Below are positions 1-64,000 of a stretch of 64,000 nucleotides of DNA, in pieces; position 1 is the first letter of the stretch; each line of letters opens with the position of its first letter. A model generated the notes under the pieces. It saw only the letters and a list, made by a program, of their open reading frames with translations. It had not been told where the DNA came from and did not search any database. A program made the translations under genes and the position numbers. Source of the DNA: Marsupella aquatica. Lineage: Eukaryota > Plantae > Marchantiophyta. The stretch is from NCBI GenBank assembly GCA_973895155.1, contig OZ316897.1, positions 5,779,327 through 5,843,326 of the forward strand, in the 5' to 3' direction.

Positions 1-1290
1 GTCAAGGAGTAATCCGACTCCACAAGCCGTGGTGACCAAGGAGGTAGAACCAGCACCATCCTCCGGCATGAATACGGCAATAGATCCCGCTATCATCACA
101 GGTGGGGGTGGTGTGTCCAAGCCGAACTACTCAGTAATGAGGCCGGTATTCCAGATCCGCCTCTTGAGCAGGCCGGGGAGACCGTAGCCGAGGCTGAGGC
201 CGTAACCGATTCCCGAGCCGATGCCGACGCCGATGGTGGACCCAGTCAGGCCAATGGAGAGTTGACTCAGTCAAGGGCAGGTAATCTGTCAGAGAATGAA
301 CCTACGGCAGTGGCTGAGGAGGAAGCGTTGGGGGCGTCCATTAAGGATCCTCCACCGGTGTCGTGACGGTGCAAGGGCGCCGTTCCTTTTAGGGAGGGAG
401 GACGTGGAGGGAGGAGGCATGAGTGGGCAGGGCGGGCGCTGATCTCCAAGTTTAGGATTAGGATCAGGACCAGGAGCGGCCCTGACACTTAGCTTAGTGG
501 GATTGCGGTTCCACTGGTAGGAGCAACACTTGTGCTCCTGCCTTGCTGTACATAGGTAGATTCGGGCAAGTAGATTACTGTTAGGTAGATTAGGCTTACG
601 ATGCAAAGAATGGCGGATCCACTACCAGGATAAGTACCTGGGTAGCGGGGAGCTCAGGGCCTCTTCTTTAGCAAGTTTTTAGTTTGCACCAGCCGGGCTG
701 GGATCAAGTAGTACGAGAAACTCTCGGTTAGTCATACAGTGACCCTTGTGTATATTCATGTTTCCTCATGCCTAAGAGCTGAATAGAGTTGGCCTCACGG
801 CTTAGTTCGTAGAGCTTGTGTATGAGATGTACTGTTTGTGTGGCAAGTGCATGGTATGACTCAGTCAGAATGAGTCATTTTGCTATTTGTGTGTTGCATT
901 AACTTGTGTGAAGAGTGCCCACATCAACCAGAAGGAAGGAAAGTAAGCAAGGGAGTGAGAGTTGGATGTGTCGAGCTGAGAGAGGTCTTAGCGGCTTAAC
1001 CAAGCCTATTGGGGATCATTCCGGCGGCGGAATCCAAACATACCTAACAAGACGGAGGGGAAGACAGGGGAAGACAGGGGAAGGCCTAGATTAGGCCGGC
1101 TACGTATCTCATGACCCAATGAAGGATCTGTCCAGTATATGTGTGTAAAATGTTAACAGTAGTAGTAGAAGATTAGCAGCGTCCCATGCCGCTAAGCCGC
1201 GGAAACGGCCTCGCCAAGCACCAAAAACCTGCGGGAATCGGCTTGAGCTGGGGGGTTTCTTGGGTTTAGGGAGCCATGGGACGCACCACA
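1..1290 (+). repeat. 3' part of the 5' LTR of element A, including the C-terminal end of the LTR-borne ORF
   Basis: Direct repeat of 10894-12169; ends in CA, 4 nt before the PBS. Confidence 0.95.
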
Positions 1291-1294
1291 TTTT

Positions 1295-1312
1295 TGGCGC
1301 TAGATGGAGGGG
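1295..1312 (+). promoter_or_regulatory. Primer-binding site, probably tRNA-Asn(GUU)
   Basis: TGGCGCTAGATGGAGGGG, 4 nt after the LTR. It matches the complement of the plant tRNA-Asn 3' end (TGGCGCTAGAAGGAGGGG, recalled from memory) with one mismatch. Confidence 0.75.
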
Positions 1313-1359
1313 GCATTTCTTAAGCCGTGAGATATGAAGTTAGAACGGAAGCGTAGGTA

Positions 1360-4352
1360 ATGACTAACCTTACGCCGAGGGAAGAAAGAGTGATTCAACG
1401 GGAGAGAGCTTGACTGCAGCAGCTCGCCGGGTGGCATGATACACAGCGACTGAGAGGGGCAGAAAGAGCTGGTAGCTCCGAAACTGGAAGTGGCGTCGAA
1501 GAAGACATACCTGAAGAAGAGTCGGTAAGGAGAAGTGAGTCTCCAACCGACATGGGGGAACCAGAGGCACGGCCAGACGAGAGGCCAGGGACCAGATTGA
1601 GCCAGCGGTCGCGCATACATTACAAGGCATTTCATGGGAGAGGAGATGAGGATCTGGACGAATGGTTGGATGATTTCGAGGGAACCGCTGCAGCAAATGG
1701 AGAATCGGCCATCAAGATGCAGATTCTTCCCGGCCTGTTCAAGGGTGAGGCTAGGCCTTGGTACAGAGCATTAGATGTGGAAGATCAAGCCATCTGGGAT
1801 ATCTTCAAAACACTCTTTGTTAAGGAGTTTCGACCAATTGGAACTTCAGAACTAGCAGTGCTGAAGTTGGGACGACTTCGGTTCAAGGAGAACAAATCCT
1901 TCAGGAAGTTCTTGCAACGCTTTCAGAAACTGGTAAGACGTACAAAGACCAATGCATCTGAAGGTATGCAACTTCAATGGTTGGTGAATGCTTTGCCACA
2001 GAAGATGAGTTTTGCAATTAGGAAGGAGAACCCGGAGACTTTAGCCGAAGCAATTAAGGATATTCAATTATACATTAATGCAGATATCACAAGCCGGAAG
2101 AAACAGCTTAAGTCTGAGAGTTCCTCATCAGAAGAGGGATCACCCCATAAGAAAAAAGATAAGAAGAAGAAACATTCTAAGAAGTCTAGAAGTGATAAGT
2201 CAAGCTCGGATAGTGGGAGTAGCAAGAGTGAGTCATCTTCTAGTTCTGAAGAAGAAAAAACTACCAAAAGGAAGGGCAGAAGGAGAGGGAAGACGAAAGT
2301 CAAGCTGGAGGCTAAGCCACCAGATAACATCGTAGCCCTTACCGAGCAACTTAAGGCTATCATTGCAGAGGTAAAACCGAAGAAGAAGGTAGTACAGGAG
2401 GATAGCTCTGTATGGTGTGCCTTATGTTATAAAACCGGACACCATAAAGATGTGTGTCCTAAGCTTAATACTAATCATGTTCGGCATGTGGCCGAGATCA
2501 GACCATGTCAGGGAGAAGTAGAGTACTTTTTAGGAGATGCCGCTGATAGTGTTTTCGGCATCAGTGAGACTGGAGCACGAGACCTATTCAACAGACCTGC
2601 ATCTCTATGGTCAGGGTTAAGGAACAATCCAGGAGAGATGTATCCTCGGATTATTCAGAACCCGTCAGTACCTCCTAGGCCGAATGTGCAAAGATTTGCG
2701 GCGTGCTATAATTGTGGTCAACCTGGCCATTTTGCTAGAGAATGCCCGAATGCACGCAAACAGGGTGATGGACAACCAGCTCAGCTATGTATGGGATGCC
2801 GACAGGAAGGTCATATGCTAGGGCAATGTCCTACTTGGTTGGCAGGCCTGGCCGCAAATCATAAACTTTTGCCGGTCAAGATCTTACCGCCAGGTACTAC
2901 CCCCGGAGGAGTTCAAATCAACCACATCGAACTAGGATGGCAAGAGGATGCCGAGGCAGAGTTCGTACCATCTGATGATGAGGCCGAAGCCCTATCAACC
3001 TTCTCAGAGGAGGATTTAGATCATGATTGCTACCGGGTCTCTACTTGATCTACCAGAAGGAAGGAAAGGTGGGATGGGCTGGCCAAAAATAAAGGGAAGG
3101 TTACGGAGGAAAAGATCGACTCTTCGTCAACATCAACAGAAGGAGAAGGGAGGGCTCCGGCAATACAGGTAAGCCATGAGCCCACCAGTGAACCCAATCC
3201 TTCACAAGATAGCGACTTCAATCGAGATCATCCTAAGTTGTTCTACCCCTCTGTTACGACTAGTGTTAAGGAACAACTAAGAGAATTAGAAACCCTGGAG
3301 AATACCGAAGCCATTGCCAAGGATGTAAAACGAGCAAAAGCATTGTTTGCTTCGGAAGACCCAACAGCTGTGGAGACTAGCGTGGCAAAACTGGCCAAAT
3401 CCAAGACGGAGACACCACCAGAGGAGAAGCCGATTGTTCCCTATGACCTGGCTAAAGATGTACTAGAATCTAGAGTCTCGGCAACAGTAGGTCAACTATT
3501 GAAAAATAGCTCGTACTTCCGGAAGCAATTAAGGAAGGCTATTCTCGGCAAGCCGAGATTACCCAAGGTAGTAACCAGATCCGACGTACTAATGATAGAA
3601 GAAGATCAAGGAGCCCCAGCATTACCATTAATGATTCAAGGAGAATTATTACTACGGGTACCCATCGATGGAGGATCAGGGGTATGTATTATGATTGATT
3701 CAACAGCAAAAGGGTGGGGTCTAACACCGGAGATGACTGGAAGAGTGTTGAACATGGCCAATGGATATCAGGTCATTCCCACGGGAGTGTTAACCGGCAT
3801 CAAGACAGAGATAGGAGGTATCTTCTTTAGCATTAACTATGTAGTACTGAAGCCGGTAAATCCTACGTCATTCCGGCTATTGATTGGTAGGCCATGGCTG
3901 TACCTAGCCGAGGTAATAGAAGATTGGGGTAAAAAGCAGTTCACTTTCGAGACCCCCTCTATCACGGTATCCTGGGACACTAAGGATGACCGTAGGAAAA
4001 GCATAAGGGAAGTAGATGGGTACGACAATGGACTGGAGTCAGCCGATGAAGTACGTTGGTTAGAATGCCTCACTGACCTAACCGAAGAAAGTGTCTTTGG
4101 ACCAGAGGTACCCCCAGCGGATTATGGCAAGAACCAATGGAAGGTGACTTGGAAGAAGAAGACGAAGAGGTCGAGGACTGCTTTACAATAGAATCCACCT
4201 TTTTAGCTGCAATTCCGGAGGAAGTAAAGGATGTAGACCAATTGAATGAAACGGCTAAGTGGGGAGCAGTAGCAGGGACAGTGGATTTTCTGCAGGCGTT
4301 GTGGCAGAGCCGGCAGGGTTCACAACGCCATCGATCATCGGCAAGGAATTAA
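1360..4352 (+). pseudogene. gag: gag-protease ORF of element A (capsid region, three CCHC knuckles, aspartic protease)
   Basis: Knuckles CALCYKTGHHKDVC, CYNCGQPGHFAREC and CMGCRQEGHMLGQC; protease motif VPIDGGSG. Private lesions relative to copies C/D: TGA near 1411, TGA at 3046, 1-bp deletion near 4116. Confidence 0.9.
4283..4342 (+). promoter_or_regulatory. Candidate -1 programmed ribosomal frameshift signal between PR and RT
   Basis: G_GAT_TTT in the protease frame, 5-nt spacer, stem GGCGTTGTG (4295-4303) / CACAACGCC (4321-4329). The RT frame is -1 and is closed by TAA at 4256. The signal recurs at 29011-29057 and 62191-62237. Confidence 0.7.
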
Positions 4353-7300
4353 ATACCAAGGGATCGGCATACAAGCCGATTACGAGGGCAGAACAAATTG
4401 AGGCCCTATTAGAAGCCGAGAGAGCACAGCGGCCTGACTCTCAGGAGCAAGAGGTGGATGAGATGGACAGACACAATCCAGAGCCAAGGCAGGAAGGGGA
4501 GCCGACCACCAATTCAAAACCGAATAGACCGGCAAGGGGACAATCTATGGACACCAAGGAAGGGACCGACTCGGCTAGTCCAGCCGAGATTCCAGTTTAT
4601 GGAGGTATGAGATTGGAGAGACTGGAAGCCGAACTGGACCCGAATTTGAAGAAGCAGATTAATATGATCCAAGCACGGCAATATTGGAAGCTCGACTTAG
4701 GAGAGGGAAGAGAACTGAACTTAGGGAGAAACCTAGCACCTGAGCTCGAGAAAGAGATCAGTGACTTATTGATTGAATTTCAGGATGTGTTTGCATGGAG
4801 TCACCAAGATCTAAAGGGAGTAGATCCAACACTAGGGGAACATCGAATTGATCTCATGTTAGGAGCCAAATCATTTCGACAACCAATTCGAAGGATGAAC
4901 CCGAAGTATTCCCTGCTGGTCAAAACAGAAATCGACAAACTAATGGAAGCTGGATTCATCACTCCAGTCCTGCATTCAGACTGGGTGTCTCCAATTGTGA
5001 TAGTTCCCAAGAAAGCTGGACCCGATGGTAAACCCAAGATCCGGGTTTGTCAGGATTACAGGAAGCTGAATGAAGCAACATTAAAAGACCATTTTCCTTT
5101 ACCGTTTACTGATATGGTACTAGACATGGTAGCCAGTCATGAACTATATTCATTCATGGATGGATACTCTGGTTATAACCAAATCAGGATTCGGCAGGAA
5201 GACCAAATCAAGACGGCCTTCATCACGGAATGGGGGATCTATGTCTTCAATCGTATGCCGTTTGGACTCTGCAACGCACCAGCTATGTTTCAACGATTAA
5301 TGGTGAACATTTTTCATGATTACTTGAGAAAGTCATGGAAATCTTCATTGATGACTTTGCAGTATTCGGGAAGGCATCGAAACATGCTAAATACCTCAGG
5401 AAAACCTTCATGAGATGTAGAGAGGTGGGTCTCAAGTTACACCCAGATAAATGTTTCTTTGCAGTAACCGAGGGGGTGCTACTAGGTCACAAGGTATCAA
5501 GGAAGGGCATTGAGATTGACAAAGGTAAGCTAGCAGTATGGCTAGATATCATGCAACCTAAGAACATAAAGGATGTAAGATCCTTCTTGGGATGCATTGG
5601 TTACTATCGCCGGTTCATCAAGGATTTTGCCAAGCTAGCTTTACCATTAACCAACATGCTCAAGGCAGGAGCAGACTTCGAACCCACACCCGAACCAGTC
5701 ACAGCGGTGGTAGAATTGAAGCAGATGTTAGTAGAGGCCCCAGTCATGATAGCACCGGACTGGAACAAAGATTTTCATGTTTTTGTAGATGTCTCGGGCT
5801 TCTGTATCGGCTCAGTACTAAGTCAGTTGGATGAGAAAGGAAGGGACCATCCCATATACTTCGCAAGCCGTCAGCTTGCCGATGCCGAACGGAACTACTC
5901 CACCACAGAGAGAGAAGCATTAGGAGTCATTTATTCTTGTAAAAAGTTTAGGCATTATTTACTAGGATACAAGGTAATCTTTCATACCGATCATGAAAGT
6001 TTGAAGTACCTAGTCAATAAGCCGGACCTTACAGGCAGAGTAGCAAGATGGATTTTGCTATTACAGGAGTTTGACTATGAGCTGAGGATCAAGCCGGGAA
6101 AGTTACACGCCAATGCCGACTTCTTTTCAAGGATCACAGGTAAACCTGCCACGGATTGCATCGATGATCGATTCCCCGACGAGGAGCTATTCGTTGTGGA
6201 AATAGCTGATACATGGTACCCTGAGATTTTACAATTTCTCAGCACTTCCAGATTACAGCCAAGATTAAGCCGAGAGCAAGCCGCAGTCTTTGTGCAGAAG
6301 GTCAGACAGTATCAGTGCATTAAAGGCATACTGCACAAGCATGGAATCAACGGCACGATTCAAAGGTGTTTGGAAAAGGGAGAGGTAAAACGAGTCCTAC
6401 AGGCCATGCATGGAGAGGAGGCCGGAGGACATTTTGCCCCAGTAACCACGTCTAAGAAGATATTAAATGCCGGTTACTGGTGGCCCACCTTGCACAAGGA
6501 TGTCTATCAGTTTATCAAACAATGCGATCCTTGTCAACGAGCGGGAGGACCAAGGGCGTCCACCAGACATCCACTGCACCCTATTCTACCTCTGGCACCA
6601 TTCGAGAAGTGGGGTATTGATTACTTTGGACCTCTGAAACCACTGACCCACCCTCGACGGAACAAGTACATAATCCTGGCTACGGATTATGCAACTAAAT
6701 GGGTAGAGGCCAGACCAACAACGAAGGATGATGCAATTACTACGGCTAGATTCATGTATGAGCAGATCTTCACCAGGTATGGAGCACCCCTAGAATTAGT
6801 TAGTGATAGAGGAACCCATTTTTTGAATGATATAATTAGTCGTTTAAATGAGCAGTATTTAGTTAAACATAGGCCTACTACTCCCTACCATCCAAAGGCA
6901 AATGGGTTGACAGAACGAGCAAACGGAATTATAGGAAAGATATTGAACAAGACAGTAGCTCAGAACAAACTCGATTGGGATGATAAATTGTTTGCTGCTG
7001 TTTTTGCTTACAATCTTGCCTATAAATCCACTACCGGTCATACACCCTTCTTCTTAACCTTTGGACAAGAAGCCCTGGTACCCATGCAACTTGAGATACC
7101 GACATTTCAAGTTACAATTGAGGAAAGAGCCTCAGCGGAGGAGAGCCTAAAGGAGCGAGAATATAGGTTAGAAGCTTTAGAGGAGGTGAGAATGATTTCA
7201 GCCGAGAGAGTAGAATATAGACAGAATATCATGAAGCAGCAGTATGATAAAAAGTTGAAAGTAGTTAGTATTCACACCGGTGATCTTGTGCTACTTTATG

Positions 7301-7475
7301 ACAGTAGGTATAGTAGGTTTCCAGGAAAGCTTTACACTCGCTGGTTAGGACCCTTTAGAGTAACCATGATGTTCCCCAATGGCTCCGTACAATTGGCCAA
7401 CATTACGGAAGAGGTATATCCAGTTCGCATCCATTATGACCGCCTCAAGAAATACTATATGGACGAAGCTGAAGT

Positions 7476-7512
7476 TGTTCGCGAGGACGCTTCACAATTA
7501 AGTGGGGAGCTA
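7476..7512 (+). promoter_or_regulatory. Polypurine tract and conserved pre-LTR cassette
   Basis: TGTTCGCGAGGACGCTTCACAATTAAGTGGGGAGCTA directly before the LTR start TGTGATGCC; nearly identical in family B (54693-54738). Confidence 0.8.
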
Positions 7513-10500
7513 TGTGATGCCTAGACAGGAATCACTCGGCCAGTTAAGTGGGTAAAGCAGGAAGGCACCCTAGGAACACCTTAGTATAGGGACAAAACAA
7601 GGAAAATATAAACCATTAGGGGCAACCATGGAACCCGGGCCGAGGCCGGAGGTAAGGACGCTGAGGGTGAAAACTCGATTAGGGTTAGGGCGCGTTAAGT
7701 GTCGGCGGCTAGGAAGGATCAACGGGAAGAAGGACCGGCAGAGGAGAGGGGTAAGGAGCGCTTGCAGGAGATGGTGGCTCATTTGCGAGCACGAACTAGG
7801 CAGACGACTACGGGAGGCCAACTACTGTCAACTGCTTAGGCAAGCACTCGGGGAGAGAGTAGATACCAACGATCGACCTAAGGAGGGTATGAGCAACGTC
7901 AATCAAGCGGCACATTTCTGGGGATGCCTGTTCGAACGGGCAACTGAGTACATCAAGACTTACGAGGACGAGGAATCAGAAAGGGCAGCTCGAGAACGGC
8001 AGGAGCTCGCTCGATTGTGGGAGCTGCAGAAGACGGCTTTCTTAGGAGGCGAACTCATCAAGGACGAGTTCCTGTGGACGCCTACCTCCAATCAACTCGA
8101 CGATCTTCTGTTTTGCAAAGACAGCGTCGTCGGCATCCGAGAGGCCATCAAGAACTGCAACGACATACACTAGGAATTAAAGGGTAGCACGGAAAGGTGG
8201 ACCCAGGCAACGGTGCTAGGAGAAACCTCCACGGCAGCAGAGATGAAGAGGAAGGGAGCCGTCAACGATGAAGCCACCCCGGCAAAAAGAACGAGGTCGG
8301 CGGCACCAAAGAAGCCAGCCGAGCAGCAGAGCAGGAGGCAGGGAGAAGCCGAAGAGGAGGAGGTCGATCCCATCAAGGCCATTCCAACCAAGGATGACAC
8401 CTGGAAGGGCTGGGCGGCAACCCTACCGGTGGAGGTGCAACTACATTTTGCACGGGAGGAGGATGCATGCTTTACGGCAATGCAGACCAAGAAGTATCAA
8501 GGCTTCATGGCCGGATCCGGCTTAGAGGCCTTTGTAAGATTACCATGGCTGAAGCCGGAGGTACCGGAGTCAGACCTATTAGAATTCGTGGGGTCATGGG
8601 AACCCGAGACCAATTGCACGAGGATATATGGGAAGGATTTCTATCTTACTCCCAAGGTAATTGCCGAAGTGTTTGGCTTGCCGATAGGCAATAAGACCAA
8701 AGTTGATACCAGGAAGACCTTGCCTGACAAGGAGTTCCGGTCGTTCCCCGGGCCATCAACGAAGAATGGCTTCTTCCGGAACACCTGCACCAACCCGCAC
8801 ATAGGAGAGATGATCGACTTCTTGCGGGTGACCATGCATTGTAACTTGCCGAGGGCAGAGATCGGCAAGGCACAGGTCTATCTGGCAGAAAGGCCAGACC
8901 CAAGCCGGGACTACAACGGGTACCTCCTCAACCAATTGAAGAAGATCTTAAAGGAGGAGCAGCAGGTAATCGGCATGGGGAGCGTGTCGCGGCTTGGCTA
9001 TCACATGCCGCTGTTGTGCCGGTATGCCAGAGGTCAGACTTTTGCCCCAGTACTTCCCCTACAGGTAAGGGCACCCGAGGAAGCTCCAACGCCGAGGCCG
9101 TTGGCTGAGAAGCCTCAACCACCTGTTAGCCCTACGATCGAGCAGGTGTTTAGGCCTAGGAAGGAGGACTTGCCGATGCAGCAACCAGGCATGCAGAGTC
9201 TGCTGAAACTACTGGAGAAAGAAAAGAAATCGGCATCGGCAACAACAACGGCAACGGCAACAATGCAGGACACTACTACAGAGGTAGGCCTACATCGGCT
9301 CACAAGAGAAAACCCCTTTGTTGGAGACAAGGAGAGAATCAGGCCGGAATCCAAGCCAGGTGTTCGAATGTATGTGGGAATCTCAAGCTCCGAATCTGAG
9401 GCAGAATTGCCTGAAGCTCCTACCGACAAAGAGGAGAGGGAGAAGCCGGACGTCCAAGAAGTAGAGGAGGCAGTGGAGGACTGCAGCCATGATAATTCTG
9501 GCTATGGGTCGGACCATCACGTTCCAGGAGTAAGGACCTGTGGCCGGTTTGTCCCCACACTTCCAAGGGTAGTGCGAGGGGACCCCAACCAGCAGAGTAG
9601 CCCTGAGTCTCCCCCACCAGATGTTGCTCCCCCGAGCTTTGACGGCATAAAACAGACGGTGCAAGAATTTCAGGAGCGAATCAGGCAGGAAGAGGAGGCA
9701 GCCCTGGCTAGGGAAAAGGATTTACCAGGAGGAGATTGGCCGGAGGACATCAGGCGGCTAGCCAAAAAAGGAAGCAAACCTCTAGCCACGATTGAAGAGA
9801 TCCGCAAGACGGCTTGGGAGCAGAGGCCGCGATGGGCGATGCCGATCACTTCTACTTACTCCACCTACGCTAAGAATAGAGCCATGGAGTATGGTGAGAT
9901 GTGTGGGGAACTTGCGCTCGGCATCTTTGGAGAGGAGTTGGAGGTAGGACCCTTTTTCCATAGGGAGCAGTTGGAGAAGCACCAATTAGAAGAAGCGGTG
10001 GCTTTAGAGAGAAGCAAGAAGGACGAGGTCATTCGGCGGCTTAGGAGGATGGAAGCCGAGATTGAAGATCTAAGGGCGGCCAAGAAATCCCAAGATGAAC
10101 TGCGGATTAAACGGCATGAGCTGAACATCATGCAGGGGCAGTTGGACACCGCGCAGGCTGATAATCAGAATATCAAGGATAAACTGACTCAGATGCAGGG
10201 AGAGTTGGCCGACACGATCAAAGAGAGGGAGAAGTGGAAGCAAGAGCTGAAGAATACAGAGGAGGCCCACATAACAGCCAACAGCCGGGCCATGGCGGAG
10301 ACCCAAAGAAAGGAATGGGCGTTGAAGGGGGAGCTCGAGAAAATCCGCGGAGCCCTTGAGCAGAAGGAGGCCGAGTTAGGGAAATCTTATCAAGGGATTA
10401 TGGCGCTGCAGCAGGAGCTTGCGTCCTTGACGGCCAGCTTCAAGGCCGACCTAAGGGAGAAGGACGAGATGCTCGATCAGACTTACGCCAAGATGAACCA

Positions 10501-12169
10501 GATGGAGTCTGTCATCATTGCAGAGCTCGACAAGGAGCTAAGAGCAACCCGGGAGGAGAGGACTACCTTGAAACAAGAATGGGAGGAAGCCCAGAAGGAA
10601 CTAGAGGCACGCAAGGACCTGGATGAGACCCAGGAGGAGTTGGAGGAAATCACGAGGAAGATGGAGAACCTCCAGCGGCGGGCCGACAACCAAACGGAGC
10701 GGCTGAAGAAACAAGCCGCAGCATTTAAGTGCTTGTCTTCATCAGGCCCAACTCCAATTGGGGCAACCAAGTTACCAGGAGTGGTACTGGCCGAAGAAAA
10801 AGCCGCGCCACCTGCACCAGTGCCGGAAGTAAGTGGGAAGGGGAAGGGACCAGCTGCCGAACCAGAAAAGAAGAAAAAGCGGAAACCTTCAGGGTCAAGG
10901 AGTAATCCGACTCCACAAGCCGTGGTGACCAAGGAGGTAGAACCAGCACCATCCTCCGGCATGAATACGGCAATAGATCCCGCTATCATCACAGGTGGGG
11001 GTGGTGCGGCCCAAGCCGAACTACTCAGTAATGAGGCCGGTATTCCAGATCCGCCTCTTGAGCAGGCCGGGGAGACCGTAGCCAAGGCTGAGGCCGTAAC
11101 CGATTCCCGAGCCGATGCCGACGCTGATGGTGGACCCAGTCAGGCCGATGGAGAGTTGACTCAGTCAAGGGCAGGTAATCTGTCAGAGAATGAACCTACG
11201 GCAGTGGCTGAGGAGGAAGCGTTGGGGGCGTCCATTAAGGATCCTCCACCGGTGTCGTGACGGTGCAAGGGCGCCGTTCCTTTTAGGGAGGGAGGAGGCG
11301 TGAGTGGGCAGGGCGGGCGCTGATCTCCAAGTTTAGGATTAGGATCAGGACCAGGAGCGGCCCTGACACTTAGCTTAGTGGGATTGCGGTTCCACTGGTA
11401 GGAGCAACACTTGTGCTCCTGCCTTGCTGTACATAGGTAGATTCGGGCAAGTAGATTACTGTTAGGTAGATTAGGCTTACGATGCAAAGAATGGCAGATC
11501 CACTACCAGGATAAGTCCCTGGGCAGCGGGGAGCTCAGGGCCTCTTCTTTAGCAAGTTTTTAGTTTGCACCAGCCGGGCTAGGATCAAGTAGTACGAGAA
11601 GCTCTCGGTTAGTCATACAGTGACCCTTGTGTATATTCATGTTTCCTCATGCCTAAGAGCTGAATAGAGTTGGCCTCACGGCTTAGTTCGCAGAGCTTGT
11701 GTATGAGATGTACTGTTTGTATGGCAAGTGCATGGTATGACTCAGTCAGAATGAGTCATTTTGCTATTTGTGTGTTGCATTAACTTGTGTGAAGAGTGCC
11801 CACATCAACCAGAAGGAAGGAAAGTAAGCAGGGGAGTGAGAGTTGGATGTGTCGAGCTGAGAGAGGTCTTAGCGGCTTAACCAAGCCTATTGGGGATCAT
11901 TCCGGCGGCGGAATCCAAACATACCTAACAAGACGGAGGGGAAGACAGGGGAAGACAGGGGAAGGCCTAGATTAGGCCAGCTACGTATCTCATGACCCGA
12001 TGAAGGATCTGTCCAGTATATGTGTGTAAAATGTTAACAGTAGTAGTAGAAGGTTAGCAGCGTCCCATGCCGCTAAGCCGCAGAAACGGCCTCGCCAAGT
12101 ACGAAACCTGCGGGAATCGGCTTGAGCTGGGGGGTTTCTTGGGTTTAGGGAGCCATGGGACGCACCACA
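7513..12169 (+). repeat. 3' LTR of element A (4657 bp, protein-coding)
   Basis: TGTGATGCC...GCACCACA; same boundaries as the TSD-flanked solo LTR at 37717-42375. Confidence 0.93.
7628..11260 (+). CDS. LTR-encoded protein of family A (N-domain, basic patch, PMD-like domain, long coiled coil); one premature stop at 8171 in this copy
   Basis: The 181-aa and 1015-aa ORFs are in the same frame, and the TAG at 8171 is TGG in copies C, D and the solo LTR. Consensus is 1210 aa from ATG 7628 or 1123 aa from ATG 7889. Motif YLTPKVIAEVFGLPIG resembles the plant mobile domain. Confidence 0.85.
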
Positions 12170-14462: not shown

Positions 14463-17400
14463 CTATGTCCTCAAAGAAACTATGGACCTAGAGAGCCCTG
14501 AAAGATTTTCCAAACCTATTCTCCTTTCCCTATCCACCGCAAAGATATATCTTCCAAGTTGCTGAGGGGGCAGACCAAACAATGCATACAAATCTTTCAC
14601 CAAGATTTGAGATGCCATCCTAACACCCTCATAAAACTTGCAAGCAATGAATACATGATATTCATTCTCTATACTAGAGCTATCACATAGTTGACAAACC
14701 CTCTTTTTCCTGTCAATATCCTTCCATCTCCCTTGTTCTACTTCAAGGTGGTGTGAGCTTAGTCTATACTGAGCAATAAGTTGTCTAAGTTGTACTGAGA
14801 TAGTGCTAGATAAGTATTCTTGTTCTCGATATTTCTTCATGGGGTTCACATCTCTCATGTAGTATTGTTGCCGTGGGCTAGGTTCATGCCAAAGTTTGTG
14901 CAAAGCCTTTTGCTCAAGTTTTGCTCTTAGCTTGGTTGGGTGTGTTGGCCATTCATGTTCAGGAAAATCCCAAGCATGGGCCCATCTGCACACATCTGCA
15001 TACCACCCTGTAGCTGAAGATGAGCGCAAGGCATGAAAAGGAAATCTGTTTTCCTCCAACTCTCTTACACGCATGATGTATTTGAGTGTGTGGAAGAGTG
15101 CCTCCACCTCCAAAGGAAACAAGCCTGCCTCTGCAAGTGTAAGTGCATATGGGGTTTGTGACTTGATCCCAAGCTCCATCTCAAGAAATAGCTTTTGCAG
15201 CCCCTCAATCTGTTGCCACCCAGATTTAGACACACCTGCTCCCCAAATTGGTGCTCCATAAAGAATGACTGGTTTCACCAAAGCTCCAAAGAGATGTTTC
15301 CTTAACCTCCAAGTGTGTAGACCAGCTCTTTTGCATTTGTTCATGAATGCATAAAAAGCTCTGTACCCATTGGCAGCCCTAGATTTTACACATGAGGCCC
15401 AACTCAAGTTTTGAGAGAACTCCACCCCAAGGTATTTGTAGGTCCTCACAAATTCCACCAGATTCCCTTGGAAGTAGAGCTCTGGATTTTGTCGTGTGCC
15501 AATGCCCAAACACTTGGTCTTCTTGAGGTTGACTACCATCCCTGTTGCTTGACAAAACTCCTCCAAGGCATTGAGATGTCTTTGCAAAGCTTCTTGAGCA
15601 TGAGCAAGTAGGACCACATCATCTGCAAATATAAGAAGTTGGAGGACAAACCTACCCAATTGAGTGCCAACTCCACCATGCTCCTCCAAAATGTTGTGTA
15701 GCTGATCAATGAAGATGCCAAAGAGAGTTGGTGAGAGAGGACAACCTTGGATCACCCCAAGAGTGCTCCAGATTTCTTCAGAGGTTTCCTTTGAAAGTTT
15801 GATGTGCACTTCTTGGTACAATTTAGAAACAGCCAACCTGAGCTCTTCAGGCACTTCCAACTCCACCATCCTATCCCAAAGCTTGGATCGGGAAACTTTG
15901 TCAAAGGCCTTGGAGAAGTCCACAAACAAGCAAAATAATGGTTTATGTGGAGATTTGGCCTTTTCACACAACACCCTCAAGCAGAGAATGTGATCCATAG
16001 TGCTGAATTCTCTCCTAAAACCTGCTTGTGAAGGTGCCCTTTTCATCTCACTCTCCAACCAAGAGCTTAATCTGGCTTCAAGTAGTCCTCCCAAAACTTT
16101 AGCAAAAGTATTGCCTACCATGATGGTTCTGTAGTTGTGCACATCGTCCTTGTTGCCTGCCTTGAAGATAGGCACCACTCTTCTGGTCATCCAAGCTTTA
16201 GGTAAACCTAAAGCCATTGCTTGATTCAGCTCATGCACCAAGTTTGTTAGTAAAGAGGGTCCTCCCCACAAAAGAAGCTCCAAGTTCAGGCCCAACAGAT
16301 CTTTAGCTTTCCCATGTTGCATGTGGGAAAGATGCACCTTCACCTCCCTCTCTGTAAACTGAATGGTGTCCCCAAGGGGCAAAGGCATGCCACTAGCATC
16401 TGGAAAGAAATACAAGGATGTGACATAGGTTACCAGGTCCTGGTGATCCAAGGGGGGAGTAGTCTTGCCTGATTGCATTCTCTCCCAAAAACGTTTTGGA
16501 TGTTTGATGAACTCCTCACATAGTGATTGTTGATGACTCTTCAAGAAGCACCTCTTCTTGTGTTTGATGAAGTTCTTGTACATAGTGAATGCCAAAAATC
16601 TCTTTTCCCCTGAATGTGATCTTGCTTGCATCCTTGCTCTAGCACAATCCTCGTCAAACCAAGCCTTCATGTTTTGCTTTCTAGGGGGTTTGGTGGAGAA
16701 AGTAGAGGCTGCTGCTTGTGCTATGACTTCTGAGAGCTCAATCTGATCATCCAGGGTATGGAGAAGATGTTTAAAGTTGGCTTTGAAGATGACTTCTCTA
16801 TCAGGGTCTAGAAACAGAGGTTTGGGTACTGGCTTTCTATGCACTTTGTTTGGGATTGTGGTCAGGTCAAGATGGAACAACAAAGGCAAGTGTGAAGACT
16901 CTGGTTGTTGATCAAGTATTTGAAAGTCAACCACTCTAGTGGCAGAGGTAGGTGAGGCAAGAAGGTAATCAATGGTACTACATCCTTGTTTAGATCTAAA
17001 AGTGTAACCAGATGATTGGGGAAATCTCTCAAGCCCATTCAATATTCTTAGATTACAAGAAGCTCCCAAATGCAAAAAGTGACGTGTCATGTCATTTGTT
17101 CTGGTGTCAAGAGCCTCTCTCACCCAAGGTATCTCTTCACTACATGATGACCAAGGTAAAGTTCCTAAGTCCTCACTTTCAGTAAATTGTTCATTAGATA
17201 CCCTAGCATTAAAGTCCCCCACTATCCATGTCTCCCCTAGTGGTGATATATCATGAATGACTTGGATTAACCTATGAAATGGATAATGTGCATCAGCAAT
17301 TCCCATCTTATAGACATTCATATTAAGGGGAGCAAAGTAGGTGACAATCAGAAATGATGGAGTACCTCTGGTATGAAGTCTCACCACCATGAACTGCTTG

Positions 17401-17666
17401 CTGGGATCTTCATGTTCAATAGAGGTGATGTGTTGAAGTTGATTCTTGGTGTAGACAGCAATGCCTCCAAACCCTCTTCCCCGTGTGGTCTTCTTCTCAT
17501 TGAAGATGGATTGTATGCAAGTAAAGCCTTTAATGCTAGGTAGAGCATTTCCCTCATATTCCCAAGTCTCCGTGAAAAGCAAGATGTCAAAATTCTCAAA
17601 CAAAGGTTCCCCTCCAATTGCTGTTTCTATGGAAAGTCCTGAAACATTCCATGCCATGACTCTCAA
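14463..17666 (-). CDS. LINE ORF2: AP endonuclease, reverse transcriptase, C-terminal CCHC-type motif (1067 aa)
   Basis: EN motifs MAWNVSG, FTETW, VGDFNA, TIDY, SSHLP; RT motifs NYRTI, QAGFR, FVDFSKAFD, GVIQGCPLSP, FADD, YKYLG; C-terminal CQLC...EYHVFIAC. Confidence 0.95.
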   Translation of the reverse strand: MRVMAWNVSGLSIETAIGGEPLFENFDILLFTETWEYEGNALPSIKGFTCIQSIFNEKKTTRGRGFGGIAVYTKNQLQHITSIEHEDPSKQFMVVRLHTRGTPSFLIVTYFAPLNMNVYKMGIADAHYPFHRLIQVIHDISPLGETWIVGDFNARVSNEQFTESEDLGTLPWSSCSEEIPWVREALDTRTNDMTRHFLHLGASCNLRILNGLERFPQSSGYTFRSKQGCSTIDYLLASPTSATRVVDFQILDQQPESSHLPLLFHLDLTTIPNKVHRKPVPKPLFLDPDREVIFKANFKHLLHTLDDQIELSEVIAQAAASTFSTKPPRKQNMKAWFDEDCARARMQARSHSGEKRFLAFTMYKNFIKHKKRCFLKSHQQSLCEEFIKHPKRFWERMQSGKTTPPLDHQDLVTYVTSLYFFPDASGMPLPLGDTIQFTEREVKVHLSHMQHGKAKDLLGLNLELLLWGGPSLLTNLVHELNQAMALGLPKAWMTRRVVPIFKAGNKDDVHNYRTIMVGNTFAKVLGGLLEARLSSWLESEMKRAPSQAGFRREFSTMDHILCLRVLCEKAKSPHKPLFCLFVDFSKAFDKVSRSKLWDRMVELEVPEELRLAVSKLYQEVHIKLSKETSEEIWSTLGVIQGCPLSPTLFGIFIDQLHNILEEHGGVGTQLGRFVLQLLIFADDVVLLAHAQEALQRHLNALEEFCQATGMVVNLKKTKCLGIGTRQNPELYFQGNLVEFVRTYKYLGVEFSQNLSWASCVKSRAANGYRAFYAFMNKCKRAGLHTWRLRKHLFGALVKPVILYGAPIWGAGVSKSGWQQIEGLQKLFLEMELGIKSQTPYALTLAEAGLFPLEVEALFHTLKYIMRVRELEENRFPFHALRSSSATGWYADVCRWAHAWDFPEHEWPTHPTKLRAKLEQKALHKLWHEPSPRQQYYMRDVNPMKKYREQEYLSSTISVQLRQLIAQYRLSSHHLEVEQGRWKDIDRKKRVCQLCDSSSIENEYHVFIACKFYEGVRMASQILVKDLYALFGLPPQQLGRYIFAVDRERRIGLENLSGLSRSIVSLRT

Positions 17667-17678
17667 GGTCCCAATCCA

Positions 17679-18514: not shown

Positions 18515-19256
18515 GATGTCAGTTGCAGCTCTACCTTTGCCAGTGATACACTCTCGCTGTTTGCAACACTCTGCCAAAATCTGAGCTCAAACCGCAGCCG
18601 ATTGCCCTTCCAACTCGAAGTGAAATTTCGCCCCAAGCTCAGAATCCCGAAACTGGACACGTAGCAGATCGTGCATGCTAAAGTGCATACCAAACGATGT
18701 CGGTTGCAGCTCTAACTTTGCCAATGATACATTCTCGCTGTTTCCAATGCTCTGGCAAAGTCTGAGCTTAAACCATAGCCAATTTCCCTTCCAACTCGAA
18801 GTGAAATTTTGCCCCAAGCTCAGAATTGCGAAACTGGAGACGTAACAGATCGTGCATGCTAAAGTGCATATCAAACAATGTCGGTTGCAGCTCTAACTTT
18901 GCCAGTGATACATTCTTGCTGTTTCCAATGCTCTGGCAAAATCTGAGCTCAAATCGCAGCCGATTGCCCTTCCAACTCGAAGTGAAATTTCACCCCGAGC
19001 TCAGAATCGCGAAACTAGAGACGTAGCAGATTGCGCATGCTAAAGTGCATACCAAACGATGTCGGTTGCAGCTCTAACTTTGCCAATGATACATTCTCGC
19101 TGTTTCCAATGCTCTGGCAAAGTCTGAGCTTAAACCGCAGCCGATTGCCCTTCCAACTCGAAGTGAAATTTCGCCCCAAGCTCAGAATCCCAAAACTGGA
19201 CACGTAGTAGATCGTGCATGCTAAAGTGCATACCAAACGATGTCGGTTGCAGCTCT
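18515..19256. repeat. Tandem array, 181-bp unit, about 4.1 copies
   Basis: Units start at 18515, 18696, 18877, 19058 and 19239 (GATGTCGGTTGCAGCTC). Confidence 0.95.
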
Positions 19257-20760
19257 TCCCCTGCTCTAATGGTGCGGGTAGCATGTGTCAAGATGTAATG
19301 CGTGCATGCTACAGGCAAACGAGGGTGACTCTGGTCATGGAACTCGTGCCACTCAGCATTTGGCCTAAACCCTGAACGCCGAGAACCAATAGTGCTGTTG
19401 ATGTAACCCGCCAAGTTCCCCGTGCGAGGTGGGTAACCATCAATCTGAGCATACCTAGGGTCCAACTTTAGTGACATGCCATATCGACTAAAGGTTGGGC
19501 ACTGTCGGGACAAGATGCGCCATCTTGCCGCCGAATACTTGGGCCCATAGAATGGAAACAACTGAGGCAAATCATCGGGTGCACAATCGATAGGGACCAC
19601 GATATCCACAAGAGCAAATACTCCAAGTCCTACATGAGTCCCCAATGTGGAGGGGAGGATGACCCATGGGCGGTCCCAAACTATAATAGGCTCCCAAAGC
19701 GGGAGGTCCATAGGGAGTCCAAACTGGGCTGGGAAGGAGTCCTTTAAGATGTCCAAGGCTCTCCCTCGCAACTGTCTCGGTGCTCGGGACACCGATGCAT
19801 CAAGAAAAGGGCATCGGGGTGGAACAATCCTAGGTGGACGGGACTCAATCGATCGGGGTCTAGTGGTCACCACTACTCCCCTCTCAATAGGGTGCATCCT
19901 AAACACTCTCCTCCTCCTCCGAAATACACGGTCTATCTCCCTCAATGTGGCTGGCAAATTGGATGGATGGACGAGTGGTGCGAGTGCACGATATGCAATG
20001 TCTCTCAAGCGGTCCACAAGCAAAGATCGCACTACAACAGGAATCTGTTCCACATGTTCACCAAAACAAGTTCAGAATATGACAATCAAAAAACAATTCA
20101 AGGAAGGAGATGTTATCATAATTGCAATACCCAACAAAATTGTATTACCTCTCGGGTCGGGGGGGTGTAACGACCATGGATCCCTAAATGGCTAAGGACA
20201 GTGGTCCTCTCGTGTAAGACAACACCCTTGCATCGTCTGCAAGGGCAAGGCATCTTGCGAACTGGCCCAATCCCCTAAAGAGCAGCCATGGCCTCTCCAA
20301 ATCCATCAGCATGATGGGGGCTCCAGCCTCTCCTACCCTCGGAATGATGTCTGCGTCGACGACGCCTGGATCGGTGACGCCTAGATCGATCATACATGTC
20401 TGGTGAGTAATCTCTCTCCCGGTCCGACAGGTCGTCCCTCCCCCTATGATGATGGTCATCTCTGCGTCGGGTGTAAGTACCCCCACCATGGTTCTCATAG
20501 GATGAGTCATCCCTCCTCCTCCCTCCCTCGTCATCCCTCCTCCTCCGCCGCTCGTCATTGCTCCTATAGCCCGATGAAGCTGAACTCCCCCTATGCCAAT
20601 GATGGTGTCTATGTCGGTGAGAACTACCGCCATGCTCATCGTCATCATCACACGAGTCATCCCTTCGCCTATCCGACTCATCATACGTCCCCCTATGATG
20701 ATGATGGTATCTGTGCCGATGATGCCTGCCCCCATCATGGTCCGATGCATAGGTTGCCAT
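19251..20760 (-). pseudogene. Spliced gene: His/Arg/Asp-rich N-terminus, CACTA transposase-associated zinc motif, SET domain (3'-truncated)
   Basis: Exon 1 20760-20149 (one stop at 20275) ends MPCPCRRCKGVVLHERTTVLSHLGIHG...; phase-0 GT-AG intron 20148-20045; exon 2 carries GLGVFALVDI, GNLAGYINS, PNAE and ATRTIRAGEEL, cut by the 181-bp array. Confidence 0.75.
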
Positions 20761-26037: not shown

Positions 26038-26090
26038 GAGGGGGCATTTCTTAAGCCGTGAGATATGAAGTTAGGAAGGAAGCGTGGGTA

Positions 26091-29000: not shown

Positions 29001-30800
29001 CAGAGATAGTGGATTTTCCTCGGGCGTTGTGGCAGAGCCAACAGGATCCACAACGCCGTCTATCATCGGCAACAAATTAAATACCAAGGGATCGGCTTAC
29101 AAGCCGATCACAAGGGCAGAACAAATTGAGGCCCTGCTAGAAGCCGGAAGAGCACGACGGCCTGACCCTCAGGAAGCAGGAATAGATAAGATGCACGGGA
29201 AGAAACCAGAGCCGAGTCAGGAAGGGGAGCCGACAACCAATTCAAAACCAAGCAGAACGGTAAGGGAACAGTCTGTTAATAACCAGGGAGAACCTAAGTC
29301 AACCAATTTGGCTAGTACTGCCGAGATTCCAGTCTATGGAGGTATGAGACTGGAGAGGCTGGAAGCCGAGTTGGACCCAAATTTGAAGAAGCAGATTAAT
29401 ATGATCCAAGCACGGCAATACCGGAAGCTAGACTTAGGAGAAGGAAGGGAACTGAACTTGGGGCGGGACCTAGCACCTGAGCTTGAGAAAGAGATCAGTG
29501 AATTACTAATTGAATTTCAGGATGTGTTCGCATGGAGTCACCAAGATCTGAAGGGAGTAGACCCAAAACTAGGAGAACACCGAATCGATCTCATGTTAGG
29601 GGCCAAATCATTTTGACAACCGATTTGAAGGATGAACCCTAAGTATTCTCTGATGGTCAAGGCTGAAATTGATAAACTAGTGGAAGCCGGATTCATCACT
29701 CCAGTCCTGCATTCAGATTGGGTGTCTCCAATTGTGATAGTTCCCAAGAAAGCTGGACCCAATGGTAATTAAACCAAAGATCCGGGTTTGTCAGGATTAC
29801 AGGAAGTTGAATGAGGCTACGTTAAAAGACCATTTTCCATAAGACATCCACTGCACCCTATTCTACCTCTGGCACCATTTGAGAAGTGGGGTATTGATTA
29901 CATTGGACCCCTGAAACCATTGACCCATCCTCGAAGAAACAAGTACATAATCCTGGCCACAGATTATGCAACTAAGTGGGTAGAGGCCAGGCCGACAACG
30001 AAGGATGATGCAATTACTACGGCTCGATCATGTATGAGCAGATCTTCACCAGGTATGGCGCACCCTTAGAATTAGTTAGTGATAGAGGAACCCATTTTCT
30101 GAATGATATAATCAGTCGTTTAAATGAGCAGTATTTAGTTAGACATAGGTCTACTACTCCCTACCACCCAAAGGCAAACGGGTTGACAGAACGAGCCAAT
30201 GGAATTATAGGAAAAATATTAAACAAAACTATAGCCTAGAACAAACTCGATTGGGATGATAAATTGTTTGCTGTTGTTTTTGCTTACAATTTAGCCTATA
30301 AATCCACTACCGGTCATACACCTTTTTTCTTAACCTTTGGGCAGGAAGCTCTGGTACCCATGCAACTTGAGATCCCTACATTTCAAGTTACAATTGAGGA
30401 GAGAACCTCAGAGGAGGAAAGCCTAAAGGATCGAGAATATAGATTAGAGGCCTTAGAAGAGGCAAGAATGATTTCAGCCGAGAGAGTAGAATATAGACAG
30501 AATACCATGAAGCAGCGGTATGATAAAAGGTTGAAACTAGTTAGTATTCACACAGGAGATCTTGTATTACTTTATGATAGTAGGTATAGTAGGTTTCCGG
30601 GGAAACTTTACACTTGCTGGTTAGGACCTTTCAGGGTATCAATGAAGTTCTCTAATGGCTCTGTGCAATTGGCCAACATAACTGGAGAGGTGTACCCAGT
30701 TCGCATCCATTACGACCGCCTCAAGAAATACTATATGGACGAAGATGAAGTTGTTCGCGAGCACGCTTCACAATTAAGTGGGGAGCTATGTGATGCCTAG
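26091..30800 (+). pseudogene. gag-PR and deleted pol of copy C
   Basis: ORFs of 417, 538, 209, 69 and 178 aa match element A; about 1.47 kb (A 5098-6564) is missing. Confidence 0.9.
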
Positions 30801-62000: not shown

Positions 62001-62261
62001 TTTTGAATTAGTGGTCGGCTCCCCTTCCTGCCTTGGCTCTAGATCGTGTATGTCCATCTCATCCACCTCTTGCTCCTGAGAGTTAGGCCGCTGTGCTCTC
62101 TCGGCTTCTAATAGGGCCTCAATTTGTTCTGCCCTCGTAATCGGCTTGTATGCCGATCCCTTGGTATTTAATTCCTTGCCGATGATCGATGGCGTTGTGG
62201 ACCCCGTCGGCTCTGCCACAACGCCTGCAGAAAATCCACTATCCCTGCTACTGCTCCCCAC
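58995..62261 (-). pseudogene. pol: pol (RT-RH-IN) of copy D, one premature stop at 60210
   Basis: The 683-aa and 384-aa ORFs are in frame; the TAG corresponds to CAG in element A. Confidence 0.93.
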
Positions 62262-64000
62262 TTAGCCGTTTCATCCAATTGGTCTACATCCTTTACTTCC
62301 TCCGGAATTGCAGCTAAAAAGGTGGATTCTATTGTAAAGCAGTCCTCGACCTCCTCGTCTTCTTCTTCCAAGTCACCTTCCATTGGTTCTTGCCATAATC
62401 CGCTCGGGGGTACCTCTGGTCCAAAGACACCTTCTTCGGTTAGGTTAGTGAGGCATTCTAACCAACGTACTTCATCGGCTGACTCCAGTCCACTGTCGTA
62501 CCCATCTACTTCCCTTATGCTTTTCCTACGGTCATCCTTAGTGTCCCAGGATACCGTGATAGAGGGGGTCCCGAAAGTGAACTACTTTTTACCCCAATCT
62601 TCTATTACCTCGGCTAGGTACAGCCATGGCCTACCAATCAATAGCCAGAATGACGTAGGATTTACCGGCTTCATTACTACATAGTTAATGCTAAAGAAGA
62701 TACCTCCTATCTCTGTCTTGATGCCGGTTAACACTCCCGTCGGAATGACCTGATATCCATTGGCCATGTTCAACACTCTTCCAGTCATCTCCGGTGTTAG
62801 ACCCCACCCTTTTGCTGTTGAATCAATCATAATACATACCCCTGATCCTCCATCGATGGGTACCCGTAGTAATAATTCTCCTTGAATCATTAATGGTAAT
62901 GCTGGGGCTCCTTGATCTTCTTCTATCATTAGTACGTCGGATCTGGTTGCTACCTTGGGTAATCTCGGCTTGCCGAGAATAGCCTTCCTTAATTGCTTCC
63001 GGAAGTACGGGCTATTTTTCAATAGTTGACCTACTATTGCCGAGACTCTAGATTCTAGTACATCTTTAGCCAGGTCATAGGGAACAATCGGCTTCTCTTC
63101 TGGTGGTGTTTCCGTCTTGGATTCGGCCAGTTTTGCCACGCTAGTCTCCACAGCTGTTGGGTCTTCCGAAGCAAACAATGCTTTTGCTCGTTTTACATCC
63201 TTGGCAATGGCTTCGGTATTCTCCAGGGTTTCTAATTCTCTTAGTTGTTCCTTAACACTAGCCGTAACAGAGGGGTAGAACAACTTAGGATGATCTCGAT
63301 TGAAGTCGCTATCTTGTGAAGGATTGGTTTCACTGGTGGGCTCATGGCTCACCTGTATTGCCGGAGCCCTCCCTTCTCCTTCTGTTGATGTTGACGAAGA
63401 GTCGATCCTTTCCTCCGTAACCTTCCCTTTATTTTTGGCCAGCCCATCCCACCTTTCCTTCCTTCTGGTAGATCGAGTAGAGACCCGGTAGCAATCATGA
63501 TCTAAATCCTCCTCTGAGAAGGTTGATAGGGCTTCGGCCTCATCATCAGATGGTACGAACTCTGCCTCGGCATCCTCTTGCCATCCTAGTTCGATGTGGT
63601 TGATTTGAACTCCTCCGGGGGTAGTACCTGGCGGTAAGATCTTGATCGGCAAAAGCTTATGATTTGCGGCCAGGCCTGCCAACCAAGTAGGACATTGCCC
63701 TAGCATATGACCTTCCTGTCGGCATCCCATACATAGCTGAGCTGGTTGTCCATCACCCTGTTTGCGTGCATTTGGGCATTCTCTAGCAAAATGGCCAGGT
63801 TGACCACAATTATAGCACGCCGCAAATCTTTGCACATTTGGCCTAGGAGGTACTGACGGGTTCTGAATAATCCGAGGATACATCTCTCCTGGATTGTTCC
63901 TTAACCCTGACCACAGAGATGCAGGTCTGTTGGATAGGTCTCGTGCTCCAGTCTCACTGATGCCGAAAACACTATCAGCGGCATCTCCCAAAAAGTACTC
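62168..64000 (-). pseudogene. gag: gag C-terminus and protease of copy D, stop at 62582
   Basis: 469-aa ORF with two CCHC knuckles and IDGGSG. Confidence 0.9.

Follow-up and report, generated by a model that had tools for sequence, protein, structure and literature searches.

A candidate -1 frameshift signal between protease and reverse transcriptase in a Ty3/gypsy-order retrotransposon family of the liverwort Marsupella aquatica

We analyzed a 64,000-nucleotide stretch of Marsupella aquatica contig OZ316897.1 (the whole stretch is called the window below, and positions are counted from its first letter). The window contains a long terminal repeat (LTR) retrotransposon family of Ty3/gypsy order, three copies of which are designated A, C, and D. 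A programmed -1 ribosomal frameshift at the junction of protease (PR) and reverse transcriptase (RT) is the best-supported reading of this family, and we consider it probable. Such a signal had been proposed in an initial annotation made from the sequence alone. The reading is favored because of the frame layout with its switch of frame, purifying selection in two frames, a conservation pattern in which the heptamer and stem are invariant, the low probability of a chance co-occurrence, and a heptamer that has been validated in PEMV2 (pea enation mosaic virus 2), whose spacer is also matched. What was observed directly comprises the layout of the frames, the heptamer's phase, the spacer length, the stem in three copies, and the pattern of conservation in the family.

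Results

Reading frames at the protease/RT junction

The RT frame (window position mod 3 = 2) is shut upstream by stops at 4247-4249 and 4256-4258 in copies A, D, and C, and it is open from 4259. The mod 3 = 0 frame, which holds the heptamer, terminates at TAA 4350-4352. The two frames therefore share the 94-nt overlap that had been annotated (Table 1).

Only copy D shows a Gag-PR frame that continues to this stop. In D (64000..62168, minus strand), Gag-PR runs to the equivalent of 4352 (62168) with one in-frame stop, at the equivalent of A-3937, and RT, in the -1 frame, is open from 62261. The gag-protease frame of copy A (mod 3 = 1) stops at TAG 4189-4191 and not at 4352, because of a 1-nt deletion in the C-run 4111-4115; A is one base short there, D has G, and copy C has C. 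The short C-run of A is taken as derived, since the comparison of D with C shows zero-frame periodicity past it. The annotated layout, in which Gag-PR ends at 4352 and RT follows at -1 in both A and D, thus holds for D and for the inferred ancestor but not for A. Nor do A and D behave as the independent insertions they had been taken for: they differ by only 46 substitutions and two 1-nt indels across ~3.1 kb and are two samples of one master sequence, so that they are not independent evidence for the -1 offset.

A slippery heptamer, a short spacer, and a stem-loop lie in the overlap

G_GAT_TTT is the sole slippery heptamer within the 94-nt overlap. It is in phase; a 5-nt spacer and then a 10-bp stem come after it, all read from the sequence where the initial annotation had put them. 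The heptamer, the spacer length, and the stem also recur as annotated in the divergent copy C, while letters of the spacer and loop vary. The stem has 10 Watson-Crick pairs in D and C, and 9 such pairs plus a closing G-U in A (4320 = T); it is paired in 30 of the 30 cells formed by the three sequences, with one G-C to G-U change. Folds were computed locally only. The predicted energies of the hairpin alone were -18.0 (A), -20.3 (D), and -18.0 (C) kcal/mol, and the z-scores were -2.0, -2.3, and -2.8 for 63-nt stretches and -4.8 for the 118-nt stretch 4283-4400. Rfam gave no relevant match.

The chance expectation for this combination is low. Slippery heptamers occupy 0.243% of window positions (two strands), which gives 0.07 expected in phase in the overlap. 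A helix of at least 10 bp starting 4-9 nt downstream was found after 1.6% of random positions and after 5 of the 308 heptamers outside the family. The joint probability of a heptamer and such a stem in the overlap is ~0.001-0.003.

Pairing between the hairpin loop and a downstream segment (4309-4313/4338-4342) may convert the hairpin into an H-type pseudoknot, although the evidence is weak. As annotated, the loop GCCG(A/G) pairs with TCGGC in A and D, with 5 bp in D and an A-U to G-U replacement in A (A and G at 4313 both pair with U4338). Over the three sequences, 14 of 15 cells of this second stem are paired, with no two-sided changes. The duplex of loop and downstream segment has energies of -8.1 (A), -9.3 (D), and -5.6 (C) kcal/mol, and the connectors of 4 nt, 6 nt, and 8 nt between the arms make the pseudoknot geometrically possible. 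All 21 cells of the second hairpin (4362-4381) are paired; its closing G-U in A and D is G-C in C.

Each frame is under selection on its own side of the junction

Comparison of D with C indicates that the Gag-PR and RT open reading frames (ORFs) have both been under purifying selection, each in its own frame, since the two lineages split. In 3400-3950, the PR frame has 27 synonymous and 18 non-synonymous changes, the counts in the other two frames being 9/39 and 7/38. For 4751-5090, the RT frame has 21 synonymous and 7 non-synonymous changes, against 7/22 and 1/28.

The change from one frame to the other can be followed through the junction itself. In 4116-4226, 13 of 25 differences fall on third positions of the zero frame (mod 0; p = 0.04), and in 4283-4352, 8 of 10 fall on third positions of the RT frame (p = 0.003). 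Read in the RT frame, the codon changes of the latter segment are 6 synonymous and 3 non-synonymous; read in the zero frame, they are 0/8. Directly past the slip site, selection therefore acts on the RT frame.

The heptamer and stem arms are invariant across the family

Variation was examined in public sequencing runs, six of which (coded runs from four studies) contain at least a third of the sampled words. In a first mapping, contigs of X1, X2, X5, and X6 at ≥80% identity (1291, 988, 34, and 6 contigs, respectively) were placed on A 3800-4900. In a second mapping, contigs of X1, X2, X5, and X8 (204, 172, 4, and 2 at the same identity) were placed on D over A 4095-4360.

Variants at ≥5% in A 4276-4330 were found at 4276, 4279, and 4280, in the spacer at 4290-4292, in the loop at 4313, 4315, and 4318, and at 4330; the T of copy D at 4279 is below 2% of depth. 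None of the 27 places in the heptamer and stem arms (7 + 20) varied at this level in X1 and X2, compared with 7 of 21 in the spacer, loop, and flanks (Fisher p = 0.0016). Among third positions of the RT frame, 0 of 6 varied within the arms and 7 of 9 outside them (p = 0.007), a pattern indicative of synonymous-site suppression at the stem. At 4320, C is the majority form, and the T of copy A preserves the pair as G-U; this T reaches 29% of X1 depth in the first mapping and is below 5% in the second.

The only frequent indels in the first mapping (3800-4900) were an insertion in the C-run and a 3-nt deletion at 4232-4236 that the alignment renders as three gaps of 1 nt. The extra C-run base makes up 93% of X5 depth and is carried by at least 8 X1 and at least 2 X2 contigs, by a further 6 and 7 clipped ones, and probably by an X6 contig. 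Gapless contigs with the whole arrangement came from X5 (765 nt, 3 differences and 0 gaps relative to D), X8 (151 nt), and X6 (290 nt). One divergent X2 contig differs in its upstream sequence but shares the heptamer, a spacer of 5 nt, and the start of the stem. In all, the arrangement is present in contigs of five coded organisms.

It was also observed that the linker 4225-4282 (+), just 5' of the heptamer, is hypervariable, with several clipped contig variants as well as the +4/-8 indels of copy C.

Coding domains and protein relatives

Pfam placed Retrotrans_gag and zf-CCHC within 1414-3045, RVT_1 and RT_RNaseH in the ORF opening at 4259, and Integrase_H2C2 and rve after them. In copy A, the RT-RNase H-integrase frame is broken at ~5332 by a 1-nt deletion into 4259-5413 and 5320-7524. 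RT_RNaseH/RT_RNaseH_2 were the only RNase H families that Pfam gave, and no second RNase H (aRH) was detected in 5998-9700 even at E up to 5.

For the protease, Pfam gave a sub-threshold match only (E = 0.22), and a PDB sequence search with it returned nothing meaningful. In the 3049-4188 translation, residues 185-333 could be aligned to the Asp_protease_2 segments of the proteins P0087, P0074, P0050, and P0069, and at 35-37% identity to P0160-P0163, which share the IDGGS...LLGRPWL motifs. A protease is therefore encoded upstream of the slip site, in the gag frame. Its active-site context IDGGSG (3640-3670 and 3915-3940, +) is unusual compared with D-S/T-G-A; the form IDGGSS also occurs in four JGI proteins and in one Selaginella moellendorffii protein.

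Among the 150 best phmmer matches listed, the nearest named RT relatives are from liverworts (Calypogeia fissa, 63-73%; Riccia sorocarpa, 52%). The gene models of these relatives begin at internal methionines and hence stop short of the PR/RT junction. The three best Atlas clusters are mostly Streptophyta, and together these relatives point to a plant host, probably a bryophyte. The phmmer search covered 1.84 billion representatives, and none of the 150 best matches aligned convincingly before residue ~100; an alignment of P0100 from residue 9 was of low quality. Residues 1-240 of the RT ORF, where the linker past the slip site lies, gave 1 weak match among 7139 candidates. Metagenome scans yielded 58 pattern matches by protein, with 0 confirmed, and 0 matches by DNA pattern.

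Table 1 Positions of the retrotransposon copies and of the features at the protease/RT junction
Feature	Position	Strand	Details
Copy A, Ty3/gypsy-order LTR element	1-12169	+	LTRs 1-1290 and 10894-12169, ~97% alike
5' LTR of copy A (window opens inside the LTR)	1..1290	+	97.2-97.4% identity to 10894-12169
Gag-protease frame, copy A (position mod 3 = 1)	1414..4191	+	In-frame stop 3046-3048; ends early at TAG 4189-4191
Protease core, motifs IDGGSG and LLIGRPWL	3601..3949	+	Alignment to relatives
Ancestral Gag-PR frame (mod 3 = 0), acidic linker and tail	4116..4352	+	Continuous with protease in D; third-position peak, D vs C
Overlap of Gag-PR frame and -1 (RT) frame, 94 nt	4259..4352	+	
RT-RNase H-integrase reading frame	4259..7524	+	Pfam; comparison of A with D
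Slippery heptamer G_GAT_TTT, in phase	4283..4289	+	Zero-frame codons GAT 4284-4286 and TTT 4287-4289
5-nt spacer	4290..4294	+	Letters vary; length kept in A, D, and C
Stem-loop, 10 bp, G+C-rich	4295..4329	+	Arms 4295-4304 and 4320-4329; 15-nt loop 4305-4319
Possible pseudoknot stem 2	4309..4342	+	4309-4313 (loop GCCGR) with 4338-4342 (TCGGC)
Second conserved hairpin, 7 bp	4362..4381	+	10 nt past zero-frame stop
Copy C	26034-34169	+	82-89% alike; without the stretch matching A 5097-6559
Heptamer, 5-nt spacer, and stem in divergent copy C	29011..29057	+	Spacer and loop letters changed
3' fragment of element	42375-37717		
Copy D	64000-58155	-	A 2521-8365 at 98% identity, then on to its own LTR
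Overlap in copy D	62168..62261	-	Heptamer 62237-62231; stem 62225-62191; zero-frame stop 62170-62168

Discussion

Proposed mechanism

A fraction of the ribosomes translating Gag-protease would slip back one base at G_GAU_UUU and continue into RT-RNase H-integrase, thereby bypassing the stop at 4350-4352. By analogy with the model for the PEMV2 heptamer, the tRNAs at GAU (P site) and UUU (A site) would shift their pairing to GGA and UUU as the hairpin holds the ribosome; the pairing of the loop with the downstream segment could make this hairpin an H-type pseudoknot. Most ribosomes would not slip and would yield the major product, Gag-PR with a 21-codon tail, and a minority would yield the fusion of Gag-PR with RT, RNase H, and integrase. 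The frequency of slipping would then set the excess of structural protein over enzymes.

Evidence against the frameshift and alternative explanations

Several observations weigh against a programmed frameshift. The copies A, C, and D, all in the window, are each defective. In copy C, 4 nt are gained after A-4226 and 8 nt are lost at A-4261-4268, so that its RT frame stands at +1 to its PR frame and not at -1, a net offset that the initial annotation had correctly ascribed to upstream indels. Copy C also has a G>A change at 4312 that breaks one of the five pseudoknot pairs. The heptamer is non-canonical in that it does not fit X_XXY_YYZ, and the zero-frame stop sits 60 nt past it, unlike in the plant-virus models. 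No compensatory (two-sided) change was seen in any of the 22 pairs across the 3 sequences, so conservation is what the predicted structure rests on; the comparison of synonymous sites and covariation was thus divided, with wobble changes suppressed and pairs not covarying.

The point at which the selected frame changes is also not exactly where the heptamer lies. The maximum-likelihood change point of the periodicity is 4245 (2-lnL range 4239-4270, where lnL is the log-likelihood), at least 13 nt upstream of the heptamer, and a switch placed at 4284 is 3.8 lnL worse. This gap hinges on three differences beside the 8-nt alignment gap of copy C; the linker there is nearly unconstrained (2 synonymous and 9 non-synonymous changes), and none of the three copies has the RT frame open before 4259. 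When contigs were mapped to A, the extra C-run base was present in just 8.6% (X1) and 24% (X2) of the covering depth. We think that these shares are lower bounds, because shared unitigs halt at branch points and variants near contig ends go uncounted, an effect also visible at 4320, where the apparent share of T in X1 dropped between the two mappings. With D as the reference, the C-run sits 21 nt inside its end, and no variant was reported there. On these shares, the long Gag-PR frame may be carried by less than a majority of the copies. Lastly, P0161 and P0162 (36% PR identity) have PR and RT in one frame, as do P0069, P0087, P0074, and P0050 (~39-47% RT identity). The -1 offset is therefore derived within the family or its near kin, and it could have begun as a mutation.

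This last point leads to the main rival, which we regard as unlikely: the -1 offset would be a linker mutation fixed in the master copy, these elements would make no Pol and would rely on enzymes supplied by others, the heptamer would be there by chance, and the stem would serve RNA packaging or dimerisation, or protein coding. The fused PR-RT of related families, the indels of the hypervariable linker 4227-4282, the defects of all window copies, and the lack of compensatory pairs would all fit this view, as would the gag-protease-only elements described as common in related plant lineages in the accessible parts of PMC9744471 and the ATHILAfinder preprint. However, purifying selection on RT in the -1 frame, with its 21 synonymous and 7 non-synonymous changes, would not be seen in an untranslated ORF, and constraint in the RT frame begins right after the heptamer. 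A fixed mutation would also have to accommodate a heptamer and stem arms that are invariant while neighboring wobble sites vary, and the same arrangement in the contigs of five coded organisms.

It is quite improbable, in our estimate, that a short intron removed at the RNA level joins the frames instead. There is a precedent in Ogre, in which the available text of PMC6317226 describes a spliced region dividing GAG-PROT from RT-RH-INT. Copy A as it stands does leave a gap of 67 nt from where its PR frame ends (4191) to where RT starts (4259), and 205 GT..AG pairs of a suitable length class surround the site, although such an enumeration is uninformative. In D, by contrast, the ORFs overlap by 94 nt and no spacer is closed in all frames, so that an intron would not be needed there. 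Zero-frame periodicity extends to at least 4226 and RT-frame periodicity starts from ~4290, which leaves less than ~64 nt for an intron, and no contig joint across the site was listed save in one X2 contig (depth 10, 21 nt on the shorter side).

Separate translation of RT-RH-INT, with ribosomes that either reinitiate past the Gag-PR stop or start internally at the first RT-frame AUG, seems to us the least probable of all. That AUG lies ~110 nt past the zero-frame stop, with the conserved hairpin 4362-4381 nearby, but RT-frame periodicity is already present in 4283-4352, upstream of it. Moreover, ribosomes that have translated an ORF of more than 900 codons would not be expected to reinitiate without special signals.

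Comparison with known recoding systems

The plant RNA virus red clover necrotic mosaic virus (RCNMV), a dianthovirus, uses the heptamer G_GAU_UUU. The likeness of the retrotransposon junction to the umbravirus PEMV2 and to RCNMV comprises this heptamer, a 5-nt spacer, and a downstream G+C-rich paired element. G GAU UUU was shown to be the slip site of PEMV2 by mutagenesis in wheat-germ extract, and a 5-nt spacer is common to RCNMV, barley yellow dwarf virus, and six umbraviruses (PMC4737148, accessible text). The initial annotation had assigned GGAUUUU to both umbraviruses and dianthoviruses; this paper, as far as its accessible text goes, bears the assignment out for PEMV2 and gives the 5-nt spacer for RCNMV. 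Its description of the signal as plant-virus-style likewise fits the heptamer and the spacer but not the stop, which in the viruses is 0-3 nt past the slip site and here is 60 nt downstream. Stimulation in the viruses comes from a bulged hairpin of 88-95 nt whose pairing partner is the genomic 3' end (same source), whereas the element here is a compact, local 35-nt hairpin, possibly a pseudoknot. The host molecule also differs, being a retrotransposon RNA here and an RNA virus in the umbra- and dianthoviruses.

The gene order of alpharetroviruses is gag-pro/pol. With these viruses, as with the pro-pol junction of type 1 human T-cell leukemia virus (HTLV-1) and betaretroviruses, the family shares a protease made with Gag and, as proposed, entry into pol by a -1 slip on a heptamer that precedes a hairpin or pseudoknot. 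Frameshifting of this kind is described for Rous sarcoma virus in the accessible part of PMC8708638, and the HTLV-1 pro-pol site in that of PMC7075266. The retroviral heptamers and structures differ from those seen here, and the plant-type Ty3/gypsy element is unrelated to those viruses at this site.

Among plant elements, recoding at or near this junction takes other forms. As the initial annotation had stated, Ogre (Tat clade) separates gag-PR from RT by an intron: a non-coding spliced spacer, 274 bp on average, sets GAG-PROT apart from RT-RH-INT (PMC6317226, in the text available, as for the other lineages that follow). The present family instead has a 94-nt ORF overlap and no detected aRH domain, a domain characteristic of the Tat clade. 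Retand, also of the Tat clade, is alike in being recoded at PROT/RT (prevailing form GAG-PROT:s:RT-RH-INT, 351 elements, 49%), but it does so with a single in-frame stop in one frame, whereas here the frame changes by -1. Tcn1, Selgy (mosses, club-mosses), and SIRE have overlapping frames (:o:) too, yet at GAG/PROT and not at PROT/RT; the pol of SIRE is in the +1 frame (PMC5009743, accessible text). A 2003 survey, as reported in the same text, found plant elements with pol in +1 only and none in the -1 frame. The 2019 REXdb survey gives, in its available text, no lineage with the prevailing form GAG-PROT:o:RT, and Ogre as GAG-PROT:_:RT (PMC6317226). In the literature that we searched, a -1 PROT/RT frameshift was not reported for any plant LTR element, although the per-element table of REXdb may list such elements.

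We put at about even the wider proposition that polymerase synthesis in a liverwort-type Ty3/gypsy family depends on a retrovirus-like -1 frameshift at protease/RT, in which the umbravirus/dianthovirus module of G_GAU_UUU and a 5-nt spacer is joined to a compact hairpin or an H-type pseudoknot. Such a signal would be the first of the -1 pro/pol kind described in a plant LTR retrotransposon and a case of convergence with plant RNA viruses. Mechanism and heptamer would both be known ones; the site (PROT/RT) and the class of host (a plant LTR retrotransposon) would be new.

The solutions that plant LTR elements have found for the Gag-to-Pol ratio include a single ORF with a spliced short-Gag RNA (EVADE, BARE). 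Control of this ratio is known only in part, from such spliced RNAs, the intron of Ogre, the in-frame stop of Retand, and the +1 overlaps of SIRE. If the present reading is true, a working -1 signal at protease/RT would bring the classical retroviral solution to plants and would provide a cellular, non-viral -1 frameshift cassette for studies of plant translation. It would also caution annotation pipelines against scoring such copies as frameshift-mutated and dead.

Other features of the window

The window is a nest of retroelements. In copy A, a presumed primer-binding site starting with TGGCGC lies within 1291-1315 (+), a few bases past the end of the 5' LTR. A 1028-codon ORF (8174-11260, +), with 7574-8173, lies 3' of the integrase and extends into the 3' LTR, so that its residues 908-1028 are encoded again at window 2-363. 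It matched no Pfam family. This ORF is kept in copies C and D and in the fragment 38793-41714, and a more distant likeness to it (28-30% identity) was seen at 35624-35950 and 52727-53275.

A second Ty3/gypsy family, called family B, occupies 54672-56054 (-) and 51647-54235 (-). The integrases of family B and copy A share 61% identity, and an 863-codon 3' ORF comes after the family B integrase. The end of the copy D LTR is ~20 nt from the start of the family B integrase ORF, and because of this abutment the protease/RT junction of family B falls outside the window.

Two ORFs of the long interspersed nuclear element (LINE) type were found at 14466-17678 and 24485-25384 (-): one is open over 1071 codons with Exo_endo_phos and RVT_1, and the other is a 300-codon endonuclease fragment. 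A tandem array at 18516-19358 (+) contains at least 4 copies of a 181-nt unit.

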